Shown here in pieces: positions 19,644 to 59,013 of a stretch of 64,000 nucleotides of DNA. Location: positions 4,783-68,782 of the forward strand of contig WRCA01000002.1 in the NCBI GenBank assembly GCA_009784275.1. Reading direction: 5' to 3'. This DNA comes from Alphaproteobacteria bacterium. GTDB taxonomy: Bacteria > Pseudomonadota > Alphaproteobacteria > Rs-D84. A program made the translations under genes and the position numbers. The notes below the pieces were generated by a model that saw only the letters and a program-made list of their open reading frames with translations, was not told the DNA's origin and made no database searches. The number at the start of each line of letters is the position of its first letter. The first letter of the stretch is position 1.

Positions 19644-20932
19644 TTTAACGCCATTTGTATAAGTTGCTTTGATTCTACCAGGAATTCCATCGGCAGGCGT
19701 TGCAGCACTGGCGACGCCATTCCGCCGACAATCAATGCCGTTGCTTCGTCTTCCGGTATGCCGGACTGCGCCAGATAGAGCAGGGCGGAAGCATCGATTG
19801 CGCCTGTTGTTGCTTCCCAGCTTTGGTCATTTTCCCCATTGCCATGAATTATTGTTGGCAAGGTATTAAGTACAGCTGAATTTCCAATCATACGGCTGTC
19901 GCACTTTGCCGCACTTTTTGCACTATGTGTTTTCGGTGAGAATGACACAAGCGAGCGAAAAGTCTGCTGTGAATTTTCCATCGCAATTCCATAGGATACT
20001 ATATTGGAGCTCGTGCTATCTCCGATATGAATCATTTTTGTGCCGGTATCGGCTTGTTGTGTGCCGCGGGTAATGCCCAGTGAATAAAAGTCTGACTGTG
20101 CGTCATCGCCCGCCAAAATTGTCGACGGATATTTCCAAGTCTTTGCGCTGCCGATTTCTACCTGTGTCCAGAATAATTTTGCATTCTTGTCACACCGTCC
20201 ACGTTTTGTTACAAAGTTATAAATATTTTGCGCCCAATTTTGTACCGTCGCATATTTTACCAATGCATTGTCATGCGCGATAATTTCAACCACTCCGCTG
20301 TGCAGCTGGTGATTTGGGCGGCGCGGCGCGCTGCATCCCTCCAGATAAGATAATTCTGCGCCTTCATCGGCAATAATAAGGGTACGTTCAAACTGGCCGA
20401 TTTTCGCAGTTTCTATACGAAAATAAGACGCCAGATCAATCGGGCATTTGGTATTTTTGGGAATGTAAACAAAGGTTCCATCTGAAAATACTGCCGCATT
20501 TAATGCCGCGAAAAAATTATCTGTGTTGGACACTACCGTTCCCAGATATTTTTTTATTAACTCGGGATGTTTTTCGACTGCTTCGGAAAAAGGCAGGAAT
20601 ATAATGCCCAGTTTTTCCAACTCCGCGGTATAGCTGGTATGCACGCTGCGGCTGTCTATCACCGTATCTGTCGCCATTCCCATCAGCGCTTTTTTTTCAA
20701 TTTCAGGCAAACCCATCGCATCATAGACTTTTTCCAAATCGGAATTATCAATCGGCGCGGATTCTTTGTAATAATTTAACGAGTTATAATCGATCGGGTC
20801 ATAATCTATTTCGCCCCAATGCGGTTCCTTCATCTTTTGCCAGGCCGCAAAGGCCGCAAGACGCCAATCGGTCAACCACTTTGGTTCGGAACGTTTTTGG
20901 GAAATATCCAAGATTGTTTGTTTTGATAACAT
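19637..20932 (-). CDS. sufB: Fe-S cluster assembly scaffold SufB
   Basis: 431 aa; conserved SufB/SufD-family C-terminal beta-helix region. Confidence 0.8.
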   Translation of the reverse strand: MLSKQTILDISQKRSEPKWLTDWRLAAFAAWQKMKEPHWGEIDYDPIDYNSLNYYKESAPIDNSDLEKVYDAMGLPEIEKKALMGMATDTVIDSRSVHTSYTAELEKLGIIFLPFSEAVEKHPELIKKYLGTVVSNTDNFFAALNAAVFSDGTFVYIPKNTKCPIDLASYFRIETAKIGQFERTLIIADEGAELSYLEGCSAPRRPNHQLHSGVVEIIAHDNALVKYATVQNWAQNIYNFVTKRGRCDKNAKLFWTQVEIGSAKTWKYPSTILAGDDAQSDFYSLGITRGTQQADTGTKMIHIGDSTSSNIVSYGIAMENSQQTFRSLVSFSPKTHSAKSAAKCDSRMIGNSAVLNTLPTIIHGNGENDQSWEATTGAIDASALLYLAQSGIPEDEATALIVGGMASPVLQRLPMEFLVESKQLIQMALKC

Positions 20933-20935
20933 TCT

Positions 20936-21460
20936 CTAGTTATTGGCGGCCAGTTGTTTCGCCTGCGCCAGCAGAGTCATCGTTTGCCCCAGCAATCCGT
21001 CCGAGAAAGTTGCCGCCAGCAATCCATCTGAATCTGCCGTTGCCAAGTAAGTTAAAAACTTCGATGCATGATCCGAATAGCTGTCCGTTGCGCGCGCGAC
21101 AGTTGAATCCAATTTTATCGCTTGGCGAATTTGTTCCAGTATGTATGGATTTGCGGCATACTCATCCATCAGTCCGCCCGCCCACTGCCAAAGTGGATGT
21201 TCCGGTGTTTGTCGTGGTGTAACGTTTGCGGCCTTGGCGATTGGGATTAAATGTTGCAGCAGGTCTTGATAGATTATTTCTGCGTTCTGGGCAACGGCAT
21301 TTGTTGCCGCGCGAGATTTCAGCGCGCTTTGCATTTTTCCAATCGCGGCGGTCTGCAGCGCCAGTTTTGTATTTAGTGCGTTTATCTTGCGCAAGGTGAT
21401 CACGATTAAAATCGCTGATAGAAATCCGACCGCAGCTGCGAGTATTGAAAATATGTCCAT
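20936..21460 (-). CDS. hypothetical membrane-anchored protein (174 aa; N-terminal TM, Ala/Gln-rich helical periplasmic part)
   Basis: ORF track; divergent from the pilus-module promoter. Confidence 0.45.
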   Translation of the reverse strand: MDIFSILAAAVGFLSAILIVITLRKINALNTKLALQTAAIGKMQSALKSRAATNAVAQNAEIIYQDLLQHLIPIAKAANVTPRQTPEHPLWQWAGGLMDEYAANPYILEQIRQAIKLDSTVARATDSYSDHASKFLTYLATADSDGLLAATFSDGLLGQTMTLLAQAKQLAANN

Positions 21461-21534
21461 ATTGAAACCCTTTTGCTCGATTTTAACACAAATTTTCTTA
21501 ATCGCAAATAACTAGCGACAAGACACTTTAAGCC

Positions 21535-21564
21535 TTGACGGCGATTCGCACAAATTGCTATAAT
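21535..21564 (+). promoter_or_regulatory. sigma70 promoter TTGACG-18-TATAAT
   Basis: Read directly; about 30 nt upstream of the 21597 start with AAGGAAGG RBS. Confidence 0.65.
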
Positions 21565-21596
21565 TAGTTCAGTTATAAGGTTGCAAAGGAAGGATT

Positions 21597-22418
21597 ATGT
21601 TCCGAAAGTTCTTAATTTTCGCGCTTTTCGCGACAGCGTGCGGTTATGTTTTTGCGTCAGAATATGCGCCAGTATGGCCCGCCCCAGGCGATGAAGCGGA
21701 TATTCAGGTCATTAATGTCCCGATGGATTTCGATCCGGCCAGTGGTGTCGGAAACGAATTTTATTCAGATGATGCGGATAATGTTCGCATAGTTTCAAAG
21801 ATTGGCGCAGACTTGGTTGTTGAAAATAATTTCAATATGGCCGGCCGCGGCGAAGGCTTTTGGTCCGGCGGCGCTGATTTGACCCAGATATACCAAGCAC
21901 CTCCCGGATTCAATATGTATGAAGGTCAGGCAGAAATGCCGTTGATGCATGCCGAAATGATGGAAGATGATGGCGGTGCGGTTTTGGCTATGTCCCGATC
22001 CGACAGGGATAGAAGAAGCGCGAGAAGTCTTGATGCCGCAGGTGTGTATGCTGGCGGCAGGGCATCATCCGGCATGTTTATAGGGTCAAGCGATTCCGGT
22101 GATGATTTTGAATTCGAAGTCGAAGATTCTGCGGACCTTGGCAAAGCCGGCGCGGCAAAAGATCAGGTGCGCAGCTGGGTTGTTGCATCAGGACAGACTT
22201 TGCGGTCAGTTCTGCAAGAATGGTGTGATAAAGAAGGCTGGGATTTGGTGTGGAATACCGCGCGCGAATATCCAATTGCCGCATCTGCTGTGTTCAAAGG
22301 ACGCTTTATGGATGTATCAAGCGCATTGGTACGCAACTTCAGCCGCGCTGATCCCATTCCGTATGCAAAGTTTTACAAAGGCAACCGCGTTCTAGTTGTA
22401 ACAACTAATGAAGAATAA
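21597..22418 (+). CDS. secreted protein with TcpQ-like C-terminal domain (putative secretin partner/pilotin)
   Basis: Signal peptide; acidic low-complexity middle; C-terminal VASGQTLRSVLQEWCDKEGWDLVWN block reminiscent of the TcpQ/BfpG family; immediately upstream of the secretin. Confidence 0.5.
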   Translation: MFRKFLIFALFATACGYVFASEYAPVWPAPGDEADIQVINVPMDFDPASGVGNEFYSDDADNVRIVSKIGADLVVENNFNMAGRGEGFWSGGADLTQIYQAPPGFNMYEGQAEMPLMHAEMMEDDGGAVLAMSRSDRDRRSARSLDAAGVYAGGRASSGMFIGSSDSGDDFEFEVEDSADLGKAGAAKDQVRSWVVASGQTLRSVLQEWCDKEGWDLVWNTAREYPIAASAVFKGRFMDVSSALVRNFSRADPIPYAKFYKGNRVLVVTTNEE

Positions 22419-22452
22419 TAAATAGCCTGTGGTCAAAAGCTGGGAGAGATAA

Positions 22453-24009
22453 ATGAAAAAATTATTAAAACCAAGTTTACTTACTTTGGGCTTTGGGCTT
22501 TTGGCAGTGAGTTTGCTTTTTGGTTGCGCGAAAAAAGAAAGCGCGCAAGTCGCGGCAACTGTGGATCAAGATTTTATAAATGCTCATGAAGCTTTCGAGT
22601 TGTCCAAAGGTCCAAAAGCGCGGGTTTCCAATGATACGATTTCCACCAGCGAAGGCGTATGGTTGGGCAACAGGTCGACCATATTAGAACATAGAAATAA
22701 TCTGCCTGCGGAATTTGAAGACGATACAGGAATTACGATCATGCTGACCGAGCCTGTATCCTTGCAAGTCTTAGCCAATAATATTTATTCCATAACCGGA
22801 ATTCCGGTGAAAATAGACAGCCAAATAAACGCGGAAAAATTAAAGAAGACCATGGGGGTCGCTTATACAGGCAGGCTGTCGGGGCTGATGACCCAGGTTG
22901 CGACTGACTTGGATTTGCTGTGGTACTATGACAAAAGCAGCATTGTGTTTTATGAAACCGAAACGAAAACATTCACGCTTTTTGCGCTGGGGACGGATGT
23001 AAGTTATCAATCCAGCGTTCGCACGGAAGATGGTAATCAAGTTTCTCTGGAATCTAACTTGCGCGAATGGGAAGAAGTTGAGCACACATTGGAATCCATC
23101 ATAGGTGGCAACGGTGATGCGAAATTTACTGTATCACGCTCTTTGGGAACAATCACGGTTACGGCGCCCCCGTCGGTTCAAGCGCGTGTGGGCGACTATA
23201 TTAACAAACAGAACAAACGCTTGTCACAATTGGTGGCCATTGATGTAAAAGTTTTACAAGTATCGATTCAAAATTCATCGGCGTTTGGGTTGAACCTGGG
23301 CGCAGCGATCAGCACGGTTTCGGGATTGAATGTTGTGGCCAGTCCGACGACCCCGGTCAGCTCTCCGGAAGTAAGCGCGTTAAGTGTTGCGGTTCTTGCA
23401 ACCAGCGGCAGCTTGTCCAATCTTGATGGCAGCCGCGCACTGATAGAAGCATTGGCAAAGCAGGGCAAGATTTCCCTTGTCACGAATGTCGGCGTAACAA
23501 CCCGCAATAATCGTATCGCACCTGTATCAAATACTCGCAGCACCGGATATATCAAACGATTCGAATCGCGTAACTTTACTACGGTTGAATCCAGTACCGT
23601 TGATCAGGCTGATTTGGAAACAGGATTCTCGATGCAGCTGCAGCCGAATATATTGGAAAATGGAAAGATTCTGTTGCTTTTCAGAATGAGCGTGCGCGAG
23701 CTGATAGCGATGGGAACAACTAGAATCGGCGAAGTGACATTGCAATTACCTGATGTGGAAGAACGCAGCTTTATGCAGGAAGTTGTTATGGAATCCGGAC
23801 AGATGCTTGTGTTGTCGGGCTTTGAAAGACAAACGAATAATGATCAACGCTATGGGCTGGGTGATCCGAACTTTATGGCGTTGTCTGGGTCACGCGAATC
23901 CAGCAGCAATCGTGATGTGCTGGTTGTGATGTTGACGCCGCAAGTGCTTGTTTCCCCGATGGATGCTGAAAGAAGTATACAGCAACACTGGGGCGCCCCG
24001 CTTAATTAG
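22453..24009 (+). CDS. lipoprotein secretin (type IVb pilus / T2SS-type outer-membrane channel)
   Basis: Lipobox LLFGCAK; C-terminal secretin domain (VAIDVKVLQVS...; VLVVMLTPQVLV). Confidence 0.8.
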   Translation: MKKLLKPSLLTLGFGLLAVSLLFGCAKKESAQVAATVDQDFINAHEAFELSKGPKARVSNDTISTSEGVWLGNRSTILEHRNNLPAEFEDDTGITIMLTEPVSLQVLANNIYSITGIPVKIDSQINAEKLKKTMGVAYTGRLSGLMTQVATDLDLLWYYDKSSIVFYETETKTFTLFALGTDVSYQSSVRTEDGNQVSLESNLREWEEVEHTLESIIGGNGDAKFTVSRSLGTITVTAPPSVQARVGDYINKQNKRLSQLVAIDVKVLQVSIQNSSAFGLNLGAAISTVSGLNVVASPTTPVSSPEVSALSVAVLATSGSLSNLDGSRALIEALAKQGKISLVTNVGVTTRNNRIAPVSNTRSTGYIKRFESRNFTTVESSTVDQADLETGFSMQLQPNILENGKILLLFRMSVRELIAMGTTRIGEVTLQLPDVEERSFMQEVVMESGQMLVLSGFERQTNNDQRYGLGDPNFMALSGSRESSSNRDVLVVMLTPQVLVSPMDAERSIQQHWGAPLN

Positions 24010-24032
24010 TGATTTTCAAATCGGAACGCATT

Positions 24033-24091
24033 GCGCGGATTAACGGGGGCTCATGTACGCTTTTGTACACTACGCCCCCGCTAATCCGCGC
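24033..24091. repeat. 18-bp imperfect inverted repeat (GCGCGGATTAACGGGGGC / GCCCCCGCTAATCCGCGC) with nested 5-bp mini-hairpin in a 23-nt loop
   Basis: Read from sequence; 17/18 complementary; no downstream T-tract. Confidence 0.7.
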
Positions 24092-24141
24092 AGTCGGCAC
24101 AATTAATAAGAATGATTTAATTTTTTAGAAAGGAGAAAACT

Positions 24142-24615
24142 ATGTTTTACAAAATCGGATTTTTTGTTTTATTAGCAATCGTTATTGCGGGGGTATTTGT
24201 ATTTATACGCAGCAATCCTATGAAAAACGAGGGCGCGGCCAGCTGGACGGAATTCTATTCCAATGCGCCCGAGGAAACTATGAAGTTCCTTTCCGACAAT
24301 TTCGGAATCAAATCTGAAAAATTTGCCGACGGGGCAGAGAACAATGGTATGGATTATTTCAGCTTGAAAGCAAAAGGTCAATTTTGGCCGTTCGCCGGTG
24401 TCATGGATAATACTAAATTGCCAGTCGAAGGAAAAGTACCGCCGCATACAATGGTTTATTTGACTGTGAAAGATTATGATGCCACTCATGCGAAGATTGT
24501 TGCCGCTGGGGCGAAACCATTATTGGAAAGTCAATATGCGGCCGGTATGAAGTTCGGAATTTATGAAATTCCTGGTGGATTAACAATCGGTGTCGCACAA
24601 TATGGTGTGAAATAA
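24142..24615 (+). CDS. membrane-anchored VOC/glyoxalase-fold-like protein (157 aa)
   Basis: N-terminal TM; C-terminal MVYLTVKDYDATHAKIVAAGAKPL... beta-alpha-beta-beta-beta-like pattern. Confidence 0.45.
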   Translation: MFYKIGFFVLLAIVIAGVFVFIRSNPMKNEGAASWTEFYSNAPEETMKFLSDNFGIKSEKFADGAENNGMDYFSLKAKGQFWPFAGVMDNTKLPVEGKVPPHTMVYLTVKDYDATHAKIVAAGAKPLLESQYAAGMKFGIYEIPGGLTIGVAQYGVK

Positions 24616-24708
24616 AAACCGCGTCTGGGGGCGTAATTTTTATATTTTCATATTTTATTGTATTTTTTACTTGGAGTTTTTTCCTTTTTGTAATAAAATA
24701 ATCTCGTT

Positions 24709-25206
24709 ATGAGAGAGGAATTTTCACGTAAGTTCGCAATTTGTTTTGTTTCAGGCGCATTATTCGCGATGCCGTCTTTTGCGGACGAACCCCTCAAGGT
24801 TGCAAGCAAGCAATATGTTGATAGCATAGTGACGGTTTTGTCACAGCAACCGGATTGGAATCAGACAAATATAGGCAAACGCGATTATATAAAGAACAAG
24901 CCGACACTGGGCACCGCATCCGCTGCTGATACTTCTGACTTTGCAACTGTGACCCAGGGTACAAAGGCTGACACTGCGGTTCAGCCCGCGGCATTAAATA
25001 ATTATATTCCCATCTCGCAAAAAGCTGCTGCAAACGGGGTTGCATCGCTGGATGTTGGTACGAAAGTTCCGATTGCGCAGTTGCCAACAGGCACCAGCGC
25101 CACAACCATCGCAATGGGGAATGATTCCAGGTTCGATGCCGTGCCGACTTCGCAGCCTGTTGGCACCGCCCCCAGTGGATACGCTTGGATTTATTTGGAG
25201 TTATAA
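24709..25206 (+). CDS. secreted protein with phage-tail-fibre motifs (165 aa)
   Basis: Signal peptide ...AMPSFADE; motifs KRDYIKNKPTLG and ASLDVGTKVPIAQLP that resemble the YNDLxxKP and GKIPxxQLP blocks of phage tail fibres. Confidence 0.6.
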   Translation: MREEFSRKFAICFVSGALFAMPSFADEPLKVASKQYVDSIVTVLSQQPDWNQTNIGKRDYIKNKPTLGTASAADTSDFATVTQGTKADTAVQPAALNNYIPISQKAAANGVASLDVGTKVPIAQLPTGTSATTIAMGNDSRFDAVPTSQPVGTAPSGYAWIYLEL

Positions 25207-25230
25207 CAACCGTCGCATATGTGGCGATTT

Positions 25231-26085
25231 TTAATCAAGGGTTGCGTTTGCAAGACTGCCCGATCTTTTGAAAGCTTCTAATACATCTGCAGAAAGGGTA
25301 AATGATGGGACAGCATCAACTGCTGTCGCCGTAAATGTCGGTGTTCCGCCGCTGGTTTCAGTGCGCCCTTTCGAGAAAATACATGATTCGAAGTCAACTT
25401 GCGATGAAGAAATTCCCCCGCACTCTATGAAAGCAGACGCTGGGATTTTCAAGATAGTTCCGGCTGGTGCAAACGGTACCGCAGATACAGAAAGGGTTGG
25501 GGTGGTCGTCGGTGTTGTTGCTATACTTTCACAACCTGTCTTGGCGGAGTTCAATTTATAACCGCCTTTGCAGTCAAAGCTCCAGCAACCTGAACCGCGC
25601 CTTTCTGTCGCATTCGCCGGGAGACTTGCGACCGAGCTTGATACATCGTTGCACAATACCCTTTTCCCTTTCCATAAAGTAAAGCGGCTCATCCTGGGGC
25701 TGCATTCGCAACACTTCGCGACATAGGGGAATCGTAAATGCTCCGTTTGGTTAAGCTCATGCAGAATTTTATTGGGATTAGAAACAATCTGGCCACGGAT
25801 ACATTTAATTTCATCATTATTATATCTAGTTGTATAAAATTCAGTAGTTTTTGTTACCCCACCCATCATACTGTTATCTTTATCCGCAGCGATCACATCG
25901 AAGTTTTGACCCGTATGCATTATATTTCCATCTTCAAATCCGCCGCAGTATGAAAAACTTGTGCATACTGTAAGATCATTCTTTATGCTTATCAAATCGG
26001 AAGGAGTCAAATTTCCCGCGCACATTCCATCCATCGGCGCAAGTGCCATTAAAATTAAGAATATCAGGAGTTTATTTTTTAACAT
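25231..26085 (-). CDS. secreted Cys-rich, Thr/Pro-linker protein (284 aa)
   Basis: Signal peptide; 17 Cys; TTPTTTPT linker. Confidence 0.5.
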   Translation of the reverse strand: MLKNKLLIFLILMALAPMDGMCAGNLTPSDLISIKNDLTVCTSFSYCGGFEDGNIMHTGQNFDVIAADKDNSMMGGVTKTTEFYTTRYNNDEIKCIRGQIVSNPNKILHELNQTEHLRFPYVAKCCECSPRMSRFTLWKGKRVLCNDVSSSVASLPANATERRGSGCWSFDCKGGYKLNSAKTGCESIATTPTTTPTLSVSAVPFAPAGTILKIPASAFIECGGISSSQVDFESCIFSKGRTETSGGTPTFTATAVDAVPSFTLSADVLEAFKRSGSLANATLD

Positions 26086-26184
26086 TTCCTCTTTCCACTG
26101 GGTTGATTATACAAACAAATAATTTTTCAGGCAATGAGATATGAGGCTTAATATTAAATATATAATATATCCGTCAAATAAAAT

Positions 26185-26213
26185 ACAGGGGCGAATTATC
26201 ATTCGCCCCTGTG
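26185..26213 (-). terminator. intrinsic terminator for rpsT (CACAGGGGCGAATGATAATTCGCCCCTGT + U-tract on the minus strand)
   Basis: Hairpin plus T-tract directly 3' of rpsT. Confidence 0.7.
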
Positions 26214-26552: not shown

Positions 26553-27209
26553 ATGATTTATGTGATTTTATTGGCGGCCGCTTATCTTTTGGGCAGCATC
26601 CCGTTCGGGTGGCTGATGGTGTGGCTGATGGGTAAAGGAGATATTCGCAAAGTTGGCACCAGTGGGGGAACCGGCGCGACAAATGTCGCCCGTGTTATAG
26701 GAATGCCGGGATTTTTATCAGTTTTCGCACTGGATATGGCCAAGACTGTTGCTGCGGTTTTATTGGGCGCTCACTTTGGGACACCCGCGTTTGGCGCTTT
26801 GTGCGGATTTGTTTCAATTGTCGGGCATTGCTTTCCCATTTGGCTTAAATTTAAAGGCGGAAAAGGTAACGCTAGCATGTTTGGTGTTTTATTGGCGGTA
26901 AATCCAGTCATGTTTGTTGTGGTCGGAATTGAATGGTTGATGGTTGCAATAGCTACAAAGTATTCCAGCCTGGGCGCGCTTGTCGGATTCCTGATAATGC
27001 CAGTTCTGGGCTTTGCAATGAGTTTCAAGATTGGTTTGATTTTTATCGCGATCGCGGTACTGTGCTTTTGGACACATCGCGAAAATATACAAAGATTGCT
27101 GAATGGCACGGAGTCAAAAATTCAAATGAATGTAAAAAAGCTGGCGATCGCGCTGGTTCTGATTGGATTATTGGCTTTGGGGCTGATCGTGGTATTCAAT
27201 GTTTTGTGA
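26553..27209 (+). CDS. plsY: glycerol-3-phosphate acyltransferase PlsY
   Basis: LGSIPFGWL...GSGxxGATNV motifs. Confidence 0.88.
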   Translation: MIYVILLAAAYLLGSIPFGWLMVWLMGKGDIRKVGTSGGTGATNVARVIGMPGFLSVFALDMAKTVAAVLLGAHFGTPAFGALCGFVSIVGHCFPIWLKFKGGKGNASMFGVLLAVNPVMFVVVGIEWLMVAIATKYSSLGALVGFLIMPVLGFAMSFKIGLIFIAIAVLCFWTHRENIQRLLNGTESKIQMNVKKLAIALVLIGLLALGLIVVFNVL

Positions 27210-31565: not shown

Positions 31566-31937
31566 ATGAATCACGAAGATACTATTTGTAATGGTTGTTT
31601 AAATGCGAAAATACCTAGATTTGGCTGTGGCGCGAAACTTGGTTATTCATGCGGATATAATTTCAGAAACTTGTCTGAATCCAAACTGTCCTGTACTGAT
31701 AAAAAGATTTACCTCGGGACGTCGTCATATTGTAACTATGGCGGCGGGCATTTTGGCAATTTTAAAAATAATTTTCCAGAGCCTTGTGTTAATTGTCAAT
31801 CAAACCAATATTCTGCCGGCCCGGGCGAAGACCGGATTGATTATCATGACTGTGTGCATCCGGAAGTAACTTTCTTCATGATAGAAGACCTGAAGGCAGG
31901 GCGTTTGGAAATATGTCCGTTTCAGAGCGTAAAATAA
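31566..31937 (+). CDS. hypothetical Cys-rich small protein (123 aa, 14 Cys)
   Basis: ORF track. Confidence 0.45.
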   Translation: MNHEDTICNGCLNAKIPRFGCGAKLGYSCGYNFRNLSESKLSCTDKKIYLGTSSYCNYGGGHFGNFKNNFPEPCVNCQSNQYSAGPGEDRIDYHDCVHPEVTFFMIEDLKAGRLEICPFQSVK

Positions 31938-31947
31938 GGATACGAAG

Positions 31948-32319
31948 ATGAGATATAATTCGCCTGAAGAAAAAGTAACAAAGAGAATAAGAAATTGGGG
32001 CGTGGGATTATTTGCCACCGGTGTCATTGCATTTTTTGTTGCGATCGGGCTTGATATAGTCGGCCAGCAAAATGAGATGGATGCGAAACTTGCAAAATTA
32101 GAAACGGGCGTTTCTGACGGTATGTTCTTGAGGGGGGTAGAAGACTCATTTGATATCGCTTATAGAGAAGATATGAAAAAAGTAGCTAAAAATTTATCTG
32201 AAAAATCTGAAAAGCAAAGAACTGCCGCATTGTGGACTTTGTATTCAAGCCTTTTTCTGATGGGCACGGGCGGGACAGGGCTTTTTATCGCACATCAACG
32301 CAAAAAGAATGGGATGTAG
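31948..32319 (+). CDS. hypothetical membrane protein (2 TM)
   Basis: ORF track; hydrophobic helices. Confidence 0.45.
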   Translation: MRYNSPEEKVTKRIRNWGVGLFATGVIAFFVAIGLDIVGQQNEMDAKLAKLETGVSDGMFLRGVEDSFDIAYREDMKKVAKNLSEKSEKQRTAALWTLYSSLFLMGTGGTGLFIAHQRKKNGM

Positions 32320-32323
32320 GGAA

Positions 32324-32611
32324 ATGAAGAATTTTAAAAATTATGCACTTATCTTATTCGCCAGCTTGATTATGTCGGGTTGTGCTGATTTATGTAAAAA
32401 TCTAGATACATCAATAAAAGTCGAAGAAGAAGCATATAACGATTATAAAGAGAGCTATGAAATGCTGATGGGTGAAAAAGCAGCAACTAATAATCCAAGA
32501 ATGATACAATTTTATGATGGACAAGCTAAAAACGCTGAATTCCAAATGAAACAAGCACGAGAAAATATAAGAGCATTTAAGAAAACGAAAAAAGATTGCA
32601 ACTGTAAATAA
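32324..32611 (+). CDS. small lipoprotein (IMSGCAD lipobox), ends ...KKDCNCK
   Basis: ORF track trimmed to MKNFKNYALILFASLIMSGC. Confidence 0.45.
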   Translation: MKNFKNYALILFASLIMSGCADLCKNLDTSIKVEEEAYNDYKESYEMLMGEKAATNNPRMIQFYDGQAKNAEFQMKQARENIRAFKKTKKDCNCK

Positions 32612-32623
32612 AAAAGGTAGATC

Positions 32624-32908
32624 ATGAAAAACAGAAATTTGGTTAATAATGTGAAGAGTTTTGTATTGCTTACATTAATCGATGCAGCAGCGCTTGTTCC
32701 GGTTATTTTATTTCCTTGTAATGGTGCTATATCAAAAGGTGCGCTTATTGCGCTTTGCATAGGAACTCCGTTAGTTTCCGGTGCTATGACGCAAGGACTT
32801 ATTTCAATTGGGGGTTTAACTGACACTGTTGCTTCGGGGTTTGATGCTGTTTTTATAAACCCTGTAAAAAAACTGGCTAATAAAATTTATAGCGGAAAGC
32901 CGAGATAA
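32624..32908 (+). CDS. small membrane protein (94 aa)
   Basis: ORF track; two or three hydrophobic helices. Confidence 0.45.
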   Translation: MKNRNLVNNVKSFVLLTLIDAAALVPVILFPCNGAISKGALIALCIGTPLVSGAMTQGLISIGGLTDTVASGFDAVFINPVKKLANKIYSGKPR

Positions 32909-37499: not shown

Positions 37500-37982
37500 A
37501 TGAAGTTTATAAATCAAGAAAGTGGGCGCAGCATGATCGAAATGCTGGGGGTTTTGGCAATTATGGGTGTTATTACAGTCGGCGCGATTACTATGATTTC
37601 TGCCGCTATGCGCAGCCAAAAGCGAACCGCATTACAGGACGAGGTAGCGCAGCTGGTCACAGGCGTGCGAACTATACTCGGCGAATATGATGATTTTTCC
37701 AATTTGGATAATGCCACGATTTTTGCAGCGGTTGGGATGTCTGACAAGAATCCTTATGGCGGAAAATATTCGCTGATGGTTAACCCCAGCAATACGCGGC
37801 AGTTTATTTTGACCATAGATGGTTTGAGTTCTTCTGACTGCAAATATTTCCAGGCAAAGGCTTGGTCTGATTCTGTCGGTTTTGCAATGTCTGGCGGTCG
37901 TACAGGCGGCGCTGTTGCCATGCCGAACGATTGCGGTGGCGCCAGCGGTCAGAATGCTGTACAAATAACTTATGGCGAATAA
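37500..37982 (+). CDS. type IV pilin / pseudopilin (prepilin with class III signal peptide)
   Basis: Short basic leader ending in G, then RSMIEMLGVLAIMGVITVGAI with Glu at +5; two C-terminal Cys (D-region). Confidence 0.65.
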   Translation: MKFINQESGRSMIEMLGVLAIMGVITVGAITMISAAMRSQKRTALQDEVAQLVTGVRTILGEYDDFSNLDNATIFAAVGMSDKNPYGGKYSLMVNPSNTRQFILTIDGLSSSDCKYFQAKAWSDSVGFAMSGGRTGGAVAMPNDCGGASGQNAVQITYGE

Positions 37983-44982: not shown

Positions 44983-45011
44983 AAAAAATCCCGCGTGTGC
45001 GGGATTATTTT
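44983..45011. terminator. terminator AAAAAATCCCGC-GTGT-GCGGGATTATTTTT
   Basis: Downstream of the giant fibre gene. Confidence 0.7.
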
Positions 45012-48000
45012 TATCTGGTAATCAGTTCCCAGAAGAAACCCTTTGGCGCCGTCGATGGAGTATACGCGCAGTTTGCAGTACTAGGAGGAGTGGTGCCAGG
45101 AATATAACCAATTCCAAGTCCAGTTGAGGGAAGATTAGGACAATATTGTCCATAGTTCAATGAACATGATACGTTGTTTCCATCGCATGCAAAGGGAACC
45201 TTTGGTATAAGACCATTCGAACCACCATTACCTGCCGAGGTTTCAGCAGTCGCAACTGGTGGAACAAATCCAATCGCTTGCCAGTTGGTTCCATCGTAAA
45301 TAAACTCATAAACAGCAGCGTTTAATGGATTGTTTGCGCTAACTGCAGCGTCATTTACAAATATGGGTCTGGCGGTAAGATTGACGCCACTGGCGGTAAC
45401 ATTTAAGGTTGCAGCAGCAGTCGCGGTGCTATGAATCTTCGCAACCACGCGTCTGCCAGTTGCCAGAGAAGGTATGATCTTTGATGTGGCAAGAGTATAT
45501 GTTGGTGCAGTTCCAAGAGTAGTTCCGTCAAGGTAGTTGAATATTGGATCGCTTTCTGGCATCAGCTCCCAAGCGGCCCCGTTATATACGAAATTATAAG
45601 TTTGTCCTGCACGCAACAGACCCGCTGCAATCGGGGCAGACCCCATATACTGAATTGTTTTTGCACCAGTGATGTTATTTATATTAATTGTTGATCCGCC
45701 GGTATTTGTATTGATGAATGTTGCTACTAGATGGGAACCTTTGGTCAGCATATCAGCGGTGAAATTTGTGAATCCATTTGCTGTCAAAGCGTAACTGTTT
45801 GTGCCGGATGCTGTTCCAGTAAATACGTTATCAGCAGTACCAATTATTTTGGCATTCCAATTAGTTCCATCATATGTAAATGAATATGTCGTACCTGCTA
45901 TCAATAAATTTGTAGTGCTTATAGCTGCCCCATTTTGAAATACCGGTCTGGGGGTTTGTCCACCTACGGATAAAGTTGTAGCGGCAGAAGAATTAGCATG
46001 CAGGGTAGCGAATACAACGGCACCCGATACCTGATCATTTGCGGTGAAGGCCGGGGCAAGAAAACTGGGAGAGCCGGTCGCAATAGTAAGCGCAGTGGCT
46101 GATCCGCCAGTTAATATTCCATTGAATGCCCTGGTAAGATCAGGCTTGTTAAGCAAATCATTATAACTTCCCGTCTTTGAAACTTGATGAAGTGTAATAT
46201 TACCACTCATCAATTCACCAGCACTGGGGGTTTGAGTACCTGTTGCATTAGTAATCAAAGTACCTGCTGGACCAATTGCACCTTGGTTTCCCTGGTTACC
46301 TTGCTGGCCGTTTGTACCAGCTGCGCCCTGATTGCCTTGCTGACCGTTCGTACCAGCTGTACCTTGATTACCTTGTTGACCATTAGTTCCAGCAGTACCT
46401 TGATTCCCTTGATTACCCTGGTTTCCTTGTTGTCCATTCGTACCGGCCGTACCCTGATTACCTTGATGGCCTTGATTACCTTGTTGTCCATTGGTTCCGG
46501 CAGTGCCCTGATTTCCTTGGTGACCCTGGAAGCCCTGGTTACCTTGATTCCCTTGTTGACCGTTGGTTCCGGCAGTACCTTGATTTCCCTGCTGTCCATT
46601 CGTGCCAGCTGTTCCCTGATTACCCTGGTGCCCTTGATTTCCCTGCTGTCCATTCGTGCCAGCTGTTCCTTGATTCCCTTGATGGCCCTGGAAGCCTTGA
46701 TTTCCCTGGTTACCCTGTTGACCATTCGTACCGGCCGTACCCTGATTACCTTGCTGTCCATTCGTACCGGCTGTGCCCTGATTTCCTTGATTGCCTTGGT
46801 TCCCCTGTTGTCCATTAGTTCCAGCAGTACCTTGATTCCCTTGATTCCCCTGGTTTCCTTGTTGTCCATTCGTACCGGCCGTACCCTGATTACCTTGATG
46901 TCCTTGATTACCTTGATGTCCTTGATTACCTTGTTGTCCATTGGTTCCTGCAGTCCCCTGATTCCCCTGTTGACCGTTTGTGCCGGCTGTACCTTGATTA
47001 CCTTGACTTCCTTGGTTGCCTTGCTGTCCATTAGTACCTGCGGTACCCTGATTTCCTTGGTGTCCCTGGAAACCCTGGTTGCCCTGATTCCCTTGCTGAC
47101 CGTTGGTTCCTGCTGTTCCTTGATTGCCTTGATGTCCTTGGAATCCCTGGTTGCCCTGATTACCCTGTTGGCCGTTGGTTCCTGCTGTTCCTTGATTCCC
47201 TTGATGGCCCTGGAAACCTTGGTTACCCTGTTGTCCATTAGTACCGGCTATACCTTGGTTCCCTTGCTGGCCGTTAGTACCGGCTGCACCTTGGTCTCCT
47301 TGGTTGCCTTGCGGACCATAAGAACCGTTGCCGTAAATTGTGACTGTGCCATCAGAAGCAGATGTGACAGTTACTGCCCCTGTACCTTTAATTTGGTTAG
47401 CAGATGTTACATTTCCACTTTCCACATGATTTAAATATGGATCGGTTGTAGCCCTGTTTACCAGAGCATTTGGGCCGGTAGTGGTATCAGTAAAAACAGA
47501 TATAGAACCATTTACAAGTTCTACATTCCCAGGTGTCCATAAGGTTATGCCAGGTTGATCGGCAATGAATCTGTATACTCGCCCATCTGTATAACGTACC
47601 AAGTCTCCAATAAAATAGTCTGATGTTATACTGAAAGCAGGAACATTTGTAGTGTCAAGTTTTTTCGCATGCCAACGTTTTGTTGTGGCGTCATATGTAA
47701 ACGAATATTTAGAGCCTGGGACTAATGGATTTGATGGGCTAACAGTTGATCCATTTTGGAATATGTTATATGAGTCGGTGTTATTGACATTCAACATGAG
47801 ACCTGACCAGAGACTTCCAGGAGGCATTGCGTGCAATGTAGCAAATACGACGGTTCCGTGCACAAGGTCATCTGCGGTAAAAGTCGGGTAAGTTATTAAG
47901 CTGTAGGACGGCAGAGTTCCGCTTGTTTTGTCCCCATTGAATGCCCTTGGCGCTGGGGGGCCGATGACAAGCGAGACATGTGCCATATCCCAAGCGCCGG

Positions 48001-48286
48001 CCGGATGCGCAGTAGTAAACCTATATACGCTTCCATTATAGACAACATGATCGCCAACAGCATATGCTGTGCCGGTAGAGAAATTAGGAACCCCAGTAAT
48101 TTTTTGACCTGACCCATCTGTCGCATATATTGCAATATTACCAACATTTGCTTGAGAGGTTCCAGATACGCTTGTTTTTCTCTCCACATAATTCATAGAT
48201 GTAATAATGTCAGTACCCGCCGAAAGTGCCGGCGTCGAAAACAACGCAATAATCAGCGCCGATATGCTGACTTTAGAGGCTTTCAT
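45011..48286 (-). CDS. giant secreted collagen-like / phage-tail-fibre-like protein (1091 aa)
   Basis: Signal peptide; about 117 Gly-X-Y triplets (GTAGTNGQQGNQG...); SYNDLLNKPDL tail-fibre motif; four copies of a roughly 70-aa domain ending Y(S/N/E)F(T/V/I)Y(D/N)G(T/A)(N/A)W; Cys-rich C-terminal tail. Confidence 0.8.
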   Translation of the reverse strand: MKASKVSISALIIALFSTPALSAGTDIITSMNYVERKTSVSGTSQANVGNIAIYATDGSGQKITGVPNFSTGTAYAVGDHVVYNGSVYRFTTAHPAGAWDMAHVSLVIGPPAPRAFNGDKTSGTLPSYSLITYPTFTADDLVHGTVVFATLHAMPPGSLWSGLMLNVNNTDSYNIFQNGSTVSPSNPLVPGSKYSFTYDATTKRWHAKKLDTTNVPAFSITSDYFIGDLVRYTDGRVYRFIADQPGITLWTPGNVELVNGSISVFTDTTTGPNALVNRATTDPYLNHVESGNVTSANQIKGTGAVTVTSASDGTVTIYGNGSYGPQGNQGDQGAAGTNGQQGNQGIAGTNGQQGNQGFQGHQGNQGTAGTNGQQGNQGNQGFQGHQGNQGTAGTNGQQGNQGNQGFQGHQGNQGTAGTNGQQGNQGSQGNQGTAGTNGQQGNQGTAGTNGQQGNQGHQGNQGHQGNQGTAGTNGQQGNQGNQGNQGTAGTNGQQGNQGNQGNQGTAGTNGQQGNQGTAGTNGQQGNQGNQGFQGHQGNQGTAGTNGQQGNQGHQGNQGTAGTNGQQGNQGTAGTNGQQGNQGNQGFQGHQGNQGTAGTNGQQGNQGHQGNQGTAGTNGQQGNQGNQGNQGTAGTNGQQGNQGTAGTNGQQGNQGAAGTNGQQGNQGNQGAIGPAGTLITNATGTQTPSAGELMSGNITLHQVSKTGSYNDLLNKPDLTRAFNGILTGGSATALTIATGSPSFLAPAFTANDQVSGAVVFATLHANSSAATTLSVGGQTPRPVFQNGAAISTTNLLIAGTTYSFTYDGTNWNAKIIGTADNVFTGTASGTNSYALTANGFTNFTADMLTKGSHLVATFINTNTGGSTININNITGAKTIQYMGSAPIAAGLLRAGQTYNFVYNGAAWELMPESDPIFNYLDGTTLGTAPTYTLATSKIIPSLATGRRVVAKIHSTATAAATLNVTASGVNLTARPIFVNDAAVSANNPLNAAVYEFIYDGTNWQAIGFVPPVATAETSAGNGGSNGLIPKVPFACDGNNVSCSLNYGQYCPNLPSTGLGIGYIPGTTPPSTANCAYTPSTAPKGFFWELITR
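46259..47314. repeat. near-perfect tandem DNA repeats (units of about 45-63 nt) encoding the Gly-X-Y collagen-like region
   Basis: Repeated units such as ggttaccttgattcccttgatggccctggaagccttgatttccctg are visible by eye; they generate long spurious antisense ORFs. Confidence 0.8.
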
Positions 48287-57607: not shown

Positions 57608-58009
57608 ATGAAATTTATAGAAACCATAAAAGACTACTTTTCCGCAAGGACCGCTTATCAGATCGCTTTGGGCAAGTTGGTAATTGCTGGTTATGAAATA
57701 AGAGGGTATCAGGACGTTTCCGAAGAAGAATTCAGAAGCTATAAGTCCAGAAAACAAAAACGAGATCATTGCATACATGTCGTTAATTATATAGAGGATA
57801 AGGATGATGGGGAATATAGGTGGTTTGAATCTCACGAATTGTTTTGCTACTGTGAAAATTTTGAGGGCAAGAAATTGTGTAAAGATAAAGAGTGCCCAGG
57901 CCATAAAAACTATCGTAGACACCACAGATGTTACAACAATTATATCAAGGCCGAGAAACACATGAAAGAATGCTGGAAGGCTATATTTACCAGAAATCCG
58001 AAAAAGTAA
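57608..58009 (+). CDS. hypothetical Cys-rich protein, paralog B (ends [12 protein letters not shown])
   Basis: ORF track; AGAGGG RBS. Confidence 0.5.
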   Translation: MKFIETIKDYFSARTAYQIALGKLVIAGYEIRGYQDVSEEEFRSYKSRKQKRDHCIHVVNYIEDKDDGEYRWFESHELFCYCENFEGKKLCKDKECPGHKNYRRHHRCYNNYIKAEKHMKECWKAIFTRNPKK

Positions 58010-58011
58010 GA

Positions 58012-59013
58012 ATGTCGCATCAATTTTTCTTTTCACCGCATATTATTGGAAGCTTGCCTGTGCCAGCGACTGGCTTTGATGTGGTGCAAGATATTGCAGA
58101 ACCACGCTTGCGCTTGTATATAACTTCGCGCGGGATTAAGACTTTTTTTACACGCAAGCGGGTTCGCGGGCGCGACGTTCGTATAATTATCGGCCGCTTT
58201 CCTGATGTTTCCGTAGAAGATGCCCGTAATGCGGTTTCGGAAAAGATCGCGGAATCCGCCGCACCGGTTAAAGTTCGCCGCAATCGTATCGTTTTCGACA
58301 GATTATTTGCCATTTATCTTTCCCGCAAAGTCAACAGGACCGAAGAAAGCCTGATGAAACTGAAACGCACCGCATCGCGTCATTGGGCATCCTTGATGCA
58401 GCGAGAAGTTGCAGATATCACTTCGGATGATCTGGCAGCGATACATGAAAAGATTTCCGAAACTGCTGGCATTGCGACCGCAAACCGCATGCTGGAAATT
58501 TTAAAGAGCATGTTCAAGTTTGCAATAGAGCAGGGACATATAACCAAAAATCCTGCTGCCGATCTGGAGAAATTTACCGAAAATCGCCGTCATCGTGATT
58601 TAACCAATGAAGAGTTTTCGCGTCTTATGAACGCCATCAAGAAAGAAAAGAATTATACTCTACGCTCGGCTTTCCTGATGCTGGTATTTGGGTTTGCCCC
58701 AAAGTCTGCTATTTTTGCCATGCGCTGGCGAGATTTTGATTTTAACAGTGATACCTGGCTGGATCGTCCCCTGTCCGACCCGGCGGTTGTATTATTGCGG
58801 AATGTTCCTCAATCTGGAACTTGGGTGTTCCCCAGTCGCGGACGGCACCTGACTGATCCGCGCAAGGCTTGGGCGGGTCTGGTGCGCAAGGCTGGCTTAT
58901 TGGATGTTCAAATGAACGATATTTACAAGCATTTATCCCGAAATCTTGCTTGGTCCGCCGATCGGGAGCAATTAAGGGCGAATATGAACGAGGTAATTGA
59001 CCATTTGTTATAA
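58012..59013 (+). pseudogene. tyrosine recombinase/integrase remnant (N-terminal SAM-like plus partial catalytic domain, truncated before the Tyr nucleophile)
   Basis: Integrase-like blocks (LTNEEFSRL, WRDFDF, VFPS, HxxR) present; Box I Arg replaced (GFAPK); the ORF ends about 20 aa before the expected catalytic Tyr. Confidence 0.5.

Follow-up and report, generated by a model that had tools for sequence, protein, structure and literature searches.

What is the function of a gene for a secreted protein and a gene for a lipoprotein secretin that stand side by side among housekeeping genes in a gut bacterium with a very small genome, and of what machine could they be a part? The question is raised by a 64,000-nt stretch of contig WRCA01000002.1 (the window, in what follows), which comes from an uncultured alphaproteobacterium of Rs-D84 and which we extended to both ends of the whole 73.6-kb contig, corresponding to ~8% of a genome of ~0.9 Mb. 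In ENA assembly ERZ27257304 this contig is k141_811847, and its proteins recur in an NCBI metagenome-assembled genome labeled “Alphaproteobacteria bacterium” (FWE50_01185). Members of the order Rs-D84, which includes relatives of Candidatus Enterousia, have genomes of <1 Mb and no respiratory chain, lack amino-acid, nucleotide and lipid biosynthesis, possess few standard transporters and were predicted by the authors of a genome survey to be obligate symbionts or parasites (PMC12306168). In the literature searched there is no report of pili or secretins for Rs-D84. We conclude, with a probability of about 0.72, that the two genes form a bicistronic operon for the outer-membrane module of a type IVb-class pilus machine whose genes are dispersed and inherited vertically. 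An initial annotation, made from the sequence, had likewise described a type IVb-pilus-like outer-membrane module, and that description has been borne out by profile matches, exclusive matches in the PDB, a fold match and an alignment, along the whole length, to a plasmid PilN-family secretin whose gene likewise comes after a TcpQ-family gene.

Our comparisons draw on a scan of the GTDB species representatives, in which 315 genomes encode a relative and from which 80 loci were compared. Among these are loci of Candidatus Enterousia spp. and of metagenome-assembled genomes classed as Alphaproteobacteria or “Rickettsiales” from the guts of humans, mice, ruminants, birds and termites, and two of them lie on complete chromosomes (958,618 bp and 716,531 bp). 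Statements of invariance in the secretin refer to a clade alignment of 21 relatives, the searches for motor genes covered a wider set of 93 related loci (1.72 Mb in total), and mean identities were calculated for each protein with its counterpart in the window as the reference. Secretin homologues that are 70-80% identical number more than 120.

The downstream gene of the pair encodes a secretin of the BfpB/TcpC/PilN type. Pfam Secretin (PF00263) matches residues 333-499 of its product (E = 7.5e-14), the best NCBIfam model is TIGR02520 (PilN-family type IVB pilus outer-membrane protein), and a comparison with all PDB chain sequences gave a sole match, BfpB (9u5s_A, E = 3.9e-42), over residues 36-120 and 132-499. 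The first of these segments aligns to BfpB 13-97 and the C-terminal part to BfpB 146-528. The secretin is colinear with BfpB and PilN and has no extra domains, its approximate layout being a lipobox that runs to Cys25, an LG domain (26-80), N0 (85-170), N3 (171-262), the secretin domain (263-499) and a tail (500-518); N0 is thus followed by N3, with no room for N1/N2. Nor was there any GspD or Tad family match to the secretin in NCBIfam at E up to 1. Its homologues are labeled hypothetical by NCBI and “GspD/PulD” or “CpaC” by JGI, the latter labels being generic.

The N-terminus of the secretin, MKKLLKPSLLTLGFGLLAVSLLFGC, closes in a lipobox, LLFG-C25, and its opening reads MKKLLKPSLLTLGFGLLAVSLLFG-C25. 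Cys25 is invariant in 21/21 relatives, G24 is conserved in at least 90%, and the lipobox G-C falls on the same dipeptide in the alignment to a plasmid PilN-family secretin. The lipoprotein signal LLFGC that had been read from the sequence therefore stands, as does the secretin assignment, and the protein would be lipidated at Cys25. Within the LG domain, V69-W70-L71-G72 aligns with I46-Y47-I48-G49 of BfpB, with W70, L71 and G72 invariant in the clade, so that by alignment this is the equivalent of the partner-binding motif. An N0-like fold was predicted at about residues 85-170 (predicted local distance difference test score, pLDDT, 65-82), and a hairpin-like segment at about 182-203, with strands at 187-190 and 196-199 that are of low confidence, aligns to the N3 hairpin region of BfpB and is shorter. 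Past the ends of BfpB and the plasmid PilN proteins the secretin continues in an invariant 19-residue tail, SPMDAERxIQQHWGAPLN, which is predicted to be helical and might make an S-domain-like contact.

The protein encoded by the upstream gene carries the NCBI name “toxin co-regulated pilus biosynthesis Q family protein”, and it is laid out as a signal peptide (1-20), an N-terminal module (~25-135), a variable linker (~136-188) and a TcpQ/N0-like domain (~189-270). Pfam TcpQ (PF10671) matches residues 192-270 over model positions 1-79 of 80 (E = 1.1e-18, 67.5 bits versus a cutoff of 27), and the clade profile of the protein, compared with all PDB chain sequences, found a sole match, BfpG (9u5s_R, E = 4.7e-18). 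The same chain was the top match when the C-terminal domain was searched against the PDB with Foldseek (probability 1.00, TMt 0.72), and residues 192-268 were predicted as beta-alpha-beta-beta-alpha-beta-beta at a pLDDT of 63-80. As modeled, then, the C-terminal domain has an N0-like fold with BfpG as the closest, and the TcpQ/BfpG-like C-terminal block that the initial annotation had proposed is found both by profile and by fold. The hydrophobic signal peptide has an invariant A20 and a Cys15 that is Ala in most relatives; since A20 is conserved whereas Cys15 is not, the protein is predicted to be a Sec-exported substrate of signal peptidase I and a non-lipoprotein, and we rejected a lipoprotein reading of it.

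In which respect does this partner protein depart from its known counterparts? With 273 aa here and a range of 255-579 aa among relatives, it is not of the small single-domain type (~115-185 aa). Its N-terminal module, of ~110 aa, is marked in the clade alignment by the motifs VWPxPG, IRIVSKIGADLVVENN, WSGGA and EMPLMHxEMLEDDGG, has no match in Pfam or NCBIfam, has no counterpart in BfpG or the Methylovorus TcpQ-family protein, and matches just 32 clusters among 1.84 billion representative proteins. When ten of these matches were scanned with Pfam, all seven proteins of 255-579 aa that had a Pfam match carried a C-terminal TcpQ domain. Three matches of the module, to repeat proteins of giant size (1416-1812 aa), were dismissed because they look like repeat or composition matches; the Pfam matches of these proteins were cadherin-like or pentapeptide-type in two and there were none in the third.

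The closest structural precedent is the bundle-forming pilus of enteropathogenic Escherichia coli. In secretins of the BfpB class a lipidated N-terminal LG domain replaces the pilotin and S domain; BfpB binds its partner through a region of two strands plus a linker, whose conserved residues Y47 and I48 are essential; there is an N0 and an N3 domain but no N1/N2, and N3 contributes an extra barrel; and BfpG, an N0-like non-lipoprotein, forms a 17:17 ring around N3, as resolved by cryo-electron microscopy (9u5s; PMC12531336). The Rs-D84 secretin resembles BfpB in being a lipoprotein with an LG domain, a corresponding motif (IYIG in BfpB, VWLG here), N0 and N3 and no N1/N2, and the Rs-D84 partner resembles BfpG in being a Sec-exported non-lipoprotein with an N0-like TcpQ-family domain. 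The differences are a low identity, the shorter N3 hairpin region and the invariant tail of the secretin, the N-terminal module and linker of the partner (BfpG is a single domain of ~115 aa) and, finally, the location of the genes, which in Rs-D84 are chromosomal core genes whereas the 14-gene bfp operon is plasmid-borne.

Similarly informative is the plasmid pMsip01 of Methylovorus, which carries the closest annotated plasmid relative of the secretin, a PilN-family protein that aligns with it over the full length at 29% identity, the G-C lipobox and GxWL included (identity to plasmid PilN proteins is 25-33%). As in Rs-D84, a TcpQ-family gene stands directly 5' of the secretin gene in this R64-type or integrative and conjugative element (ICE)-type thin-pilus system. 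On pMsip01, however, the next genes after the pair encode PilO2, PilP, an ATPase, a T2SS-F platform, a pilin, PilM and PilV, none of which is near the Rs-D84 pair. With GspD/HxcQ from type II secretion systems (T2SS) and RcpA/CpaC of the Tad system the Rs-D84 secretin shares the C-terminal domain of the superfamily, and HxcQ is also self-piloting through lipidation, but unlike T2SS and Tad secretins it has neither N1/N2 nor a GspD or Tad match, and its partner is of the TcpQ type and not a pilotin or TadD.

If the pair encodes the outer-membrane part of a pilus, where is the fiber? The sole open reading frame (ORF) in the window with a prepilin motif is a type IV pilin gene, which the initial annotation had placed at 37500 (with dprA at 27199), and both genes are present there. 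Searched against the PDB, the pilin clade profile matched TcpA best (8uhf_A, E = 3.1e-7), in an alignment that spans residues 3-144 and reaches into the globular domain. The N-terminus of the pilin is invariant in the clade, as is its predicted +1 residue, Arg (G/RSMIE), two Cys are conserved, overall identity is 63-88%, and the leader varies from 8 to 26 aa. To the toxin-coregulated pilus (TCP) of Vibrio cholerae the Rs-D84 genes are alike in the TcpQ-family domain and in globular-domain motifs of the pilin, such as KNPYGG/KNPFIG and DGLxxxxC, which match TcpA; they differ in that the mature pilin has only ~150 aa and an Arg at +1 (TcpA has 199 aa) and in that TCP is encoded by a single pathogenicity-island operon. 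The context of the pilin gene (uvrC, then pilin-rluD-AsmA) is conserved, and homologues elsewhere are in the same housekeeping setting. Three components, a secretin and a partner of the type IVb type and a candidate type IVb pilin, are accordingly present and scattered among housekeeping genes, and the pilin is probably the fiber subunit that uses this secretin and would pass through it. Of the two possibilities raised by the initial annotation, a dispersed type IV pilus gains from this clade-conserved, TcpA-like pilin; export of the neighboring fiber proteins, which we take up below, is disfavored.

The position of the pair is also highly conserved. On the left flank, all on the minus strand, are genes for an AI-2E transporter, a 306-aa ORF, sufC, sufB and a 174-aa ORF; these are followed by the TcpQ-like and secretin genes on the plus strand, a variable spacer, rpsT on the minus strand and plsY-dprA-dnaA on the plus strand. 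This order, from suf through the pair and the spacer to rpsT-plsY-dprA-dnaA, holds in essentially all 80 loci (the pair is in the same place in 79/80), and it recurs in a more divergent relative that was found through the N-terminal module of the partner. The secretin gene is present in 80/80 loci and the TcpQ-like gene stands directly 5' of it in 79/80, the lone exception being cut by a contig end. Mean identity to the window protein is 81% for GyrB, 77% for RpsT, 73% for SufB, 72% for the secretin, 62% for DprA, 56% for DnaA and 51% for the TcpQ-like protein. Judged by this conservation of sequence and order, the pair is a vertically inherited core trait of Rs-D84.

Signals for expression are conserved along with the genes. 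The gap between the two genes is 34 nt here, one less than the 35 nt first reported, and its median over 79 loci is 32 nt. The promoter-like site that had been noticed upstream (Table 1) is the best of its kind within 20900-26200; in 73/77 related loci a TATAAT ends 31-44 nt upstream of the partner ATG, and a site matching at 10/12 positions or more is present in 69/77 loci versus 1.9% of random 130-nt windows, so that it presumably acts as a promoter. A motif of the AGGAAAGGAAG type precedes the partner start codon in most related loci. Past the secretin gene is a long G+C-rich hairpin with a predicted RNA fold of -46.9 kcal/mol (z-score -5.9, with 0/200 shuffles as stable), which was not called in a terminator scan of the region and which is probably a transcript end or an mRNA stabilizer; because it occurs once in the window, we rejected the idea that it is a dispersed repeat element. 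Taken together, the short gap, the conserved promoter-like site and the hairpin point to a self-contained bicistronic operon.

Table 1. Coordinates of the pair, its predicted signals, the candidate pilin gene and other features of the window.
Feature	Position	Strand	Remarks
Sigma-70-type promoter-like site	21535-21564	+	TTGACG-18-TATAAT, extended -10 TG; 11/12 positions
Ribosome-binding site, predicted from sequence	21586-21593	+	AAGGAAGG; ends 3 nt upstream of partner ATG
TcpQ/BfpG-like periplasmic secretin partner	21597-22418	+	273 aa; Pfam, PDB profile, Foldseek
Lineage-specific N-terminal module of partner	21669-22001	+	Clade alignment motifs
BfpB/TcpC/PilN-type lipoprotein secretin	22453-24009	+	518 aa; Pfam, NCBIfam, PDB match
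C-terminal tail of secretin	23950-24006	+	Residues 500-518
Long G+C-rich hairpin	24027-24096	+	70 nt; starts 18 nt past secretin stop; without U-tract
Type IV pilin gene	37500-37982	+	160 aa; prepilin motif SG/RSMIEMLGVLAIMG, Glu +5; 13.5 kb from pair
Gene for 174-aa protein	20936-21460	-	
Variable hotspot between secretin gene and rpsT	24010-26226		
Gene for 157-aa protein	24142-24615		
Gene for 165-aa protein	24709-25206	+	
Gene for 284-aa protein	25231-26085	-	
Four small ORFs	31566-32908		123, 123, 100 and 94 aa; same strand
1091-aa ORF	45011-48286	-	
Phage-integrase-like gene	57928-59013		

Several observations weigh against the reading of the pair as part of a pilus machine. No ATPase, platform, prepilin peptidase or PilO/PilP turned up in searches of the 73.6-kb contig and the 93 loci, which extends to the whole contig the earlier remark that no ATPase or platform is adjacent. 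A Walker-A regular expression for GspE-type ATPases returned SufC only in all related loci, a tblastn search of the 1.72 Mb with a complete plasmid type IVb gene set returned homologues of TcpQ and PilN only, and in one rearranged locus (L024), as well as in the left part of the window, Pfam detected housekeeping genes only. In addition, the pilin falls short of the length of classical type IVb pilins, its conservation is unusually high for the subunit of an exposed fiber, and the genome survey lists type IV pili for another lineage and not for Rs-D84 (PMC12306168). The TIGR02520 score of the secretin, 243.2 bits, is under the trusted cutoff of 287.65; as it is nevertheless far ahead of the next family (MshL, 90 bits; the type III secretion system and HofQ models score 18-31 bits), the secretin is best regarded as a divergent PilN-family member. 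Lastly, the AlphaFold models are poor. That of the partner has a mean pLDDT of 44.0 and is usable for residues 190-270 alone, and the AlphaFold2 model of the secretin, built from a 21-sequence alignment, has a mean pLDDT of 39.6, for which reason it was kept for secondary structure alone and no fold search was made with it; what we say of the structure of LG and N3 consequently derives from sequence alignment only.

Could the same machine serve mainly for DNA uptake, with a short competence pseudopilus that pulls DNA in via the secretin for transformation or nucleotide salvage? We consider this unlikely but a live alternative, because dprA is linked to the pair, the lineage does not synthesize nucleotides and the pilin is very conserved. 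The dprA gene is 3 kb downstream and the linkage is seen in 61/80 loci, the lineage has no nucleotide biosynthesis and is short of standard transporters (PMC12306168), and high conservation is what would be expected of a pseudopilus that is not exposed. The pilin, moreover, has weak ComGE and GspH matches and the secretin a weak HofQ match (E = 7.6e-4). On the other hand, dprA belongs to a housekeeping block, plsY-dprA-dnaA, that is set apart from the pair by the opposite-strand rpsT and the variable spacer, and dprA is widespread in non-competent bacteria. Neither ComEC nor ComEA was found on the contig, and the secretin and its partner are of the BfpB/TcpC/PilN type and not of the PilQ/HofQ type.

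The absence of motor genes from all the sequence examined, the contig and the 93 loci alike, might instead be taken at face value, so that the secretin and TcpQ-like protein would be an orphan complex without a pilus motor, either a relic or a gated pore repurposed for uptake or exchange of macromolecules with a partner cell. Consistent with such a pore are the omission of type IV pili for Rs-D84 from a survey that also notes few standard transporters (PMC12306168), the very strong conservation of the pair and the lineage-specific N-terminal module of the partner. We nonetheless think it improbable: the prepilin is conserved and retains an intact cleavage motif and Glu5, which implies that a peptidase and an assembly apparatus exist; opening of a secretin in the absence of a substrate machine is not known; and the sequence inspected amounts to just ~8% of the ~0.9-Mb genome. 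A more specific version, in which a complex of the BfpB/BfpG type has been uncoupled from the pilus motor, the N-terminal module of the partner acts as a periplasmic adaptor and the channel is the main conduit for DNA or macromolecules from partner cells, we likewise regard as improbable.

Export is a further possibility, for the genes just downstream of the pair encode proteins with signal peptides, one of them tail-fiber-like, and a secretin resembling those of T2SS or TCP might release soluble or fiber proteins such as these. There is precedent for this among type IVb systems, in that TCP, for example, secretes the soluble factor TcpF. The region between the secretin gene and rpsT is, however, a variable hotspot, its length ranging from <100 nt to ~4.6 kb in the 80 genomes, and homologues of the 157-aa, 165-aa and 284-aa proteins were found in 3, 10 and 0 of the 80 loci, respectively. 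Furthermore, the secretin has no GspD-type match and no sign of N1/N2, and the strong hairpin sets its gene apart from those downstream. An exporter of this kind is therefore, in our estimation, quite improbable, and we rejected as unlikely the suggestion that the downstream fiber genes encode dedicated cargo of the secretin, as they vary between genomes.

Recent acquisition of the pair, whether as a thin-pilus fragment of a conjugative plasmid or ICE or as a pIV-type secretin of a filamentous phage, is effectively ruled out by synteny, since in ~80 species and the divergent relative alike the pair occupies one chromosomal position, with the suf operon on one side and rpsT/dnaA on the other, and although the closest annotated relatives are PilN-family secretins of conjugative plasmids and a variable gene hotspot lies directly downstream, the identity to those proteins is low, neither protein has a PHROG match and the G+C content is unremarkable.

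Some neighboring genes merit a brief description of their own. The 165-aa protein of the hotspot has a signal peptide and phage tail-fiber or minor-tail-like repeats (phrog_1446, E = 9e-10) and could be a surface adhesin; its gene being part of the hotspot, the protein does not qualify as a conserved secretin partner. The 284-aa protein is Cys-rich and secreted and has no match in Pfam, NCBIfam or PHROG, and a faint match to adenovirus fiber was seen for a 334-aa ORF that lies just to the right of the window. On the other side of the pair, the 174-aa protein has one N-terminal membrane helix, is present in 78/80 loci and has no family match; its gene opens the suf operon and is divergent from the TcpQ-like gene.

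Elsewhere in the window, four small ORFs without a family match lie between a pyrophosphatase gene and dnaN; membrane segments occur in two of them and a high Cys content in one, and the third is called as 95 aa by ENA. The 1091-aa ORF, which has no precomputed Pfam match, adjoins the genes for TolB and a CopG-like antitoxin, and the phage-integrase-like gene (weak Arm-DNA-bind_3 and Phage_int_M matches) stands among housekeeping genes. With regard to the compared loci themselves, GenBank records under the name of an “uncultured Muribaculaceae bacterium” or of “Bacteroides fragilis” (loci L004-L006, L012, L021, L059 and L071) carry the alphaproteobacterial locus with the same synteny, and these bins appear to be taxonomically mislabeled.

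How, then, might a type IVb-class pilus machine with this outer-membrane module work? By analogy with BfpB and BfpG, the secretin would be lipidated at Cys25, would target itself to the outer membrane via its LG domain without a separate pilotin, and would assemble there into a large gated multimeric channel. The Sec-exported TcpQ/BfpG-like protein would bind LG around V69-W70-L71-G72 and hoop the N3 ring, thereby stabilizing the multimer. A TcpA-like pilus, built by inner-membrane components encoded elsewhere in the genome, would then pass through the channel. What the sequences show is conservation, synteny, homology and domain architecture; the contact between the two proteins, its stoichiometry, the route of the pilus and its role follow by inference. 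Since the lineage is predicted to depend on other cells, its role is most likely attachment to partner or host cells, with transport of DNA or protein as a possible added role.

That the partner belongs to the TcpQ family was already known from its NCBI name; what is added here is the proposed pilus module in Rs-D84 and the extension of the partner, and we do not propose a new kind of machine. The extended TcpQ-like protein provides a natural variant of the BfpB-BfpG architecture. In related loci the sequence of the secretin is better conserved than that of DnaA, and the pair indicates that type IVb machinery, which is usually an accessory of pathogens and plasmids encoded by mobile single operons, can also be passed on vertically with its genes dispersed among those for housekeeping functions. 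For Rs-D84, a widespread uncultured gut lineage, the pair and the pilin together are a concrete candidate for an apparatus of attachment or uptake.

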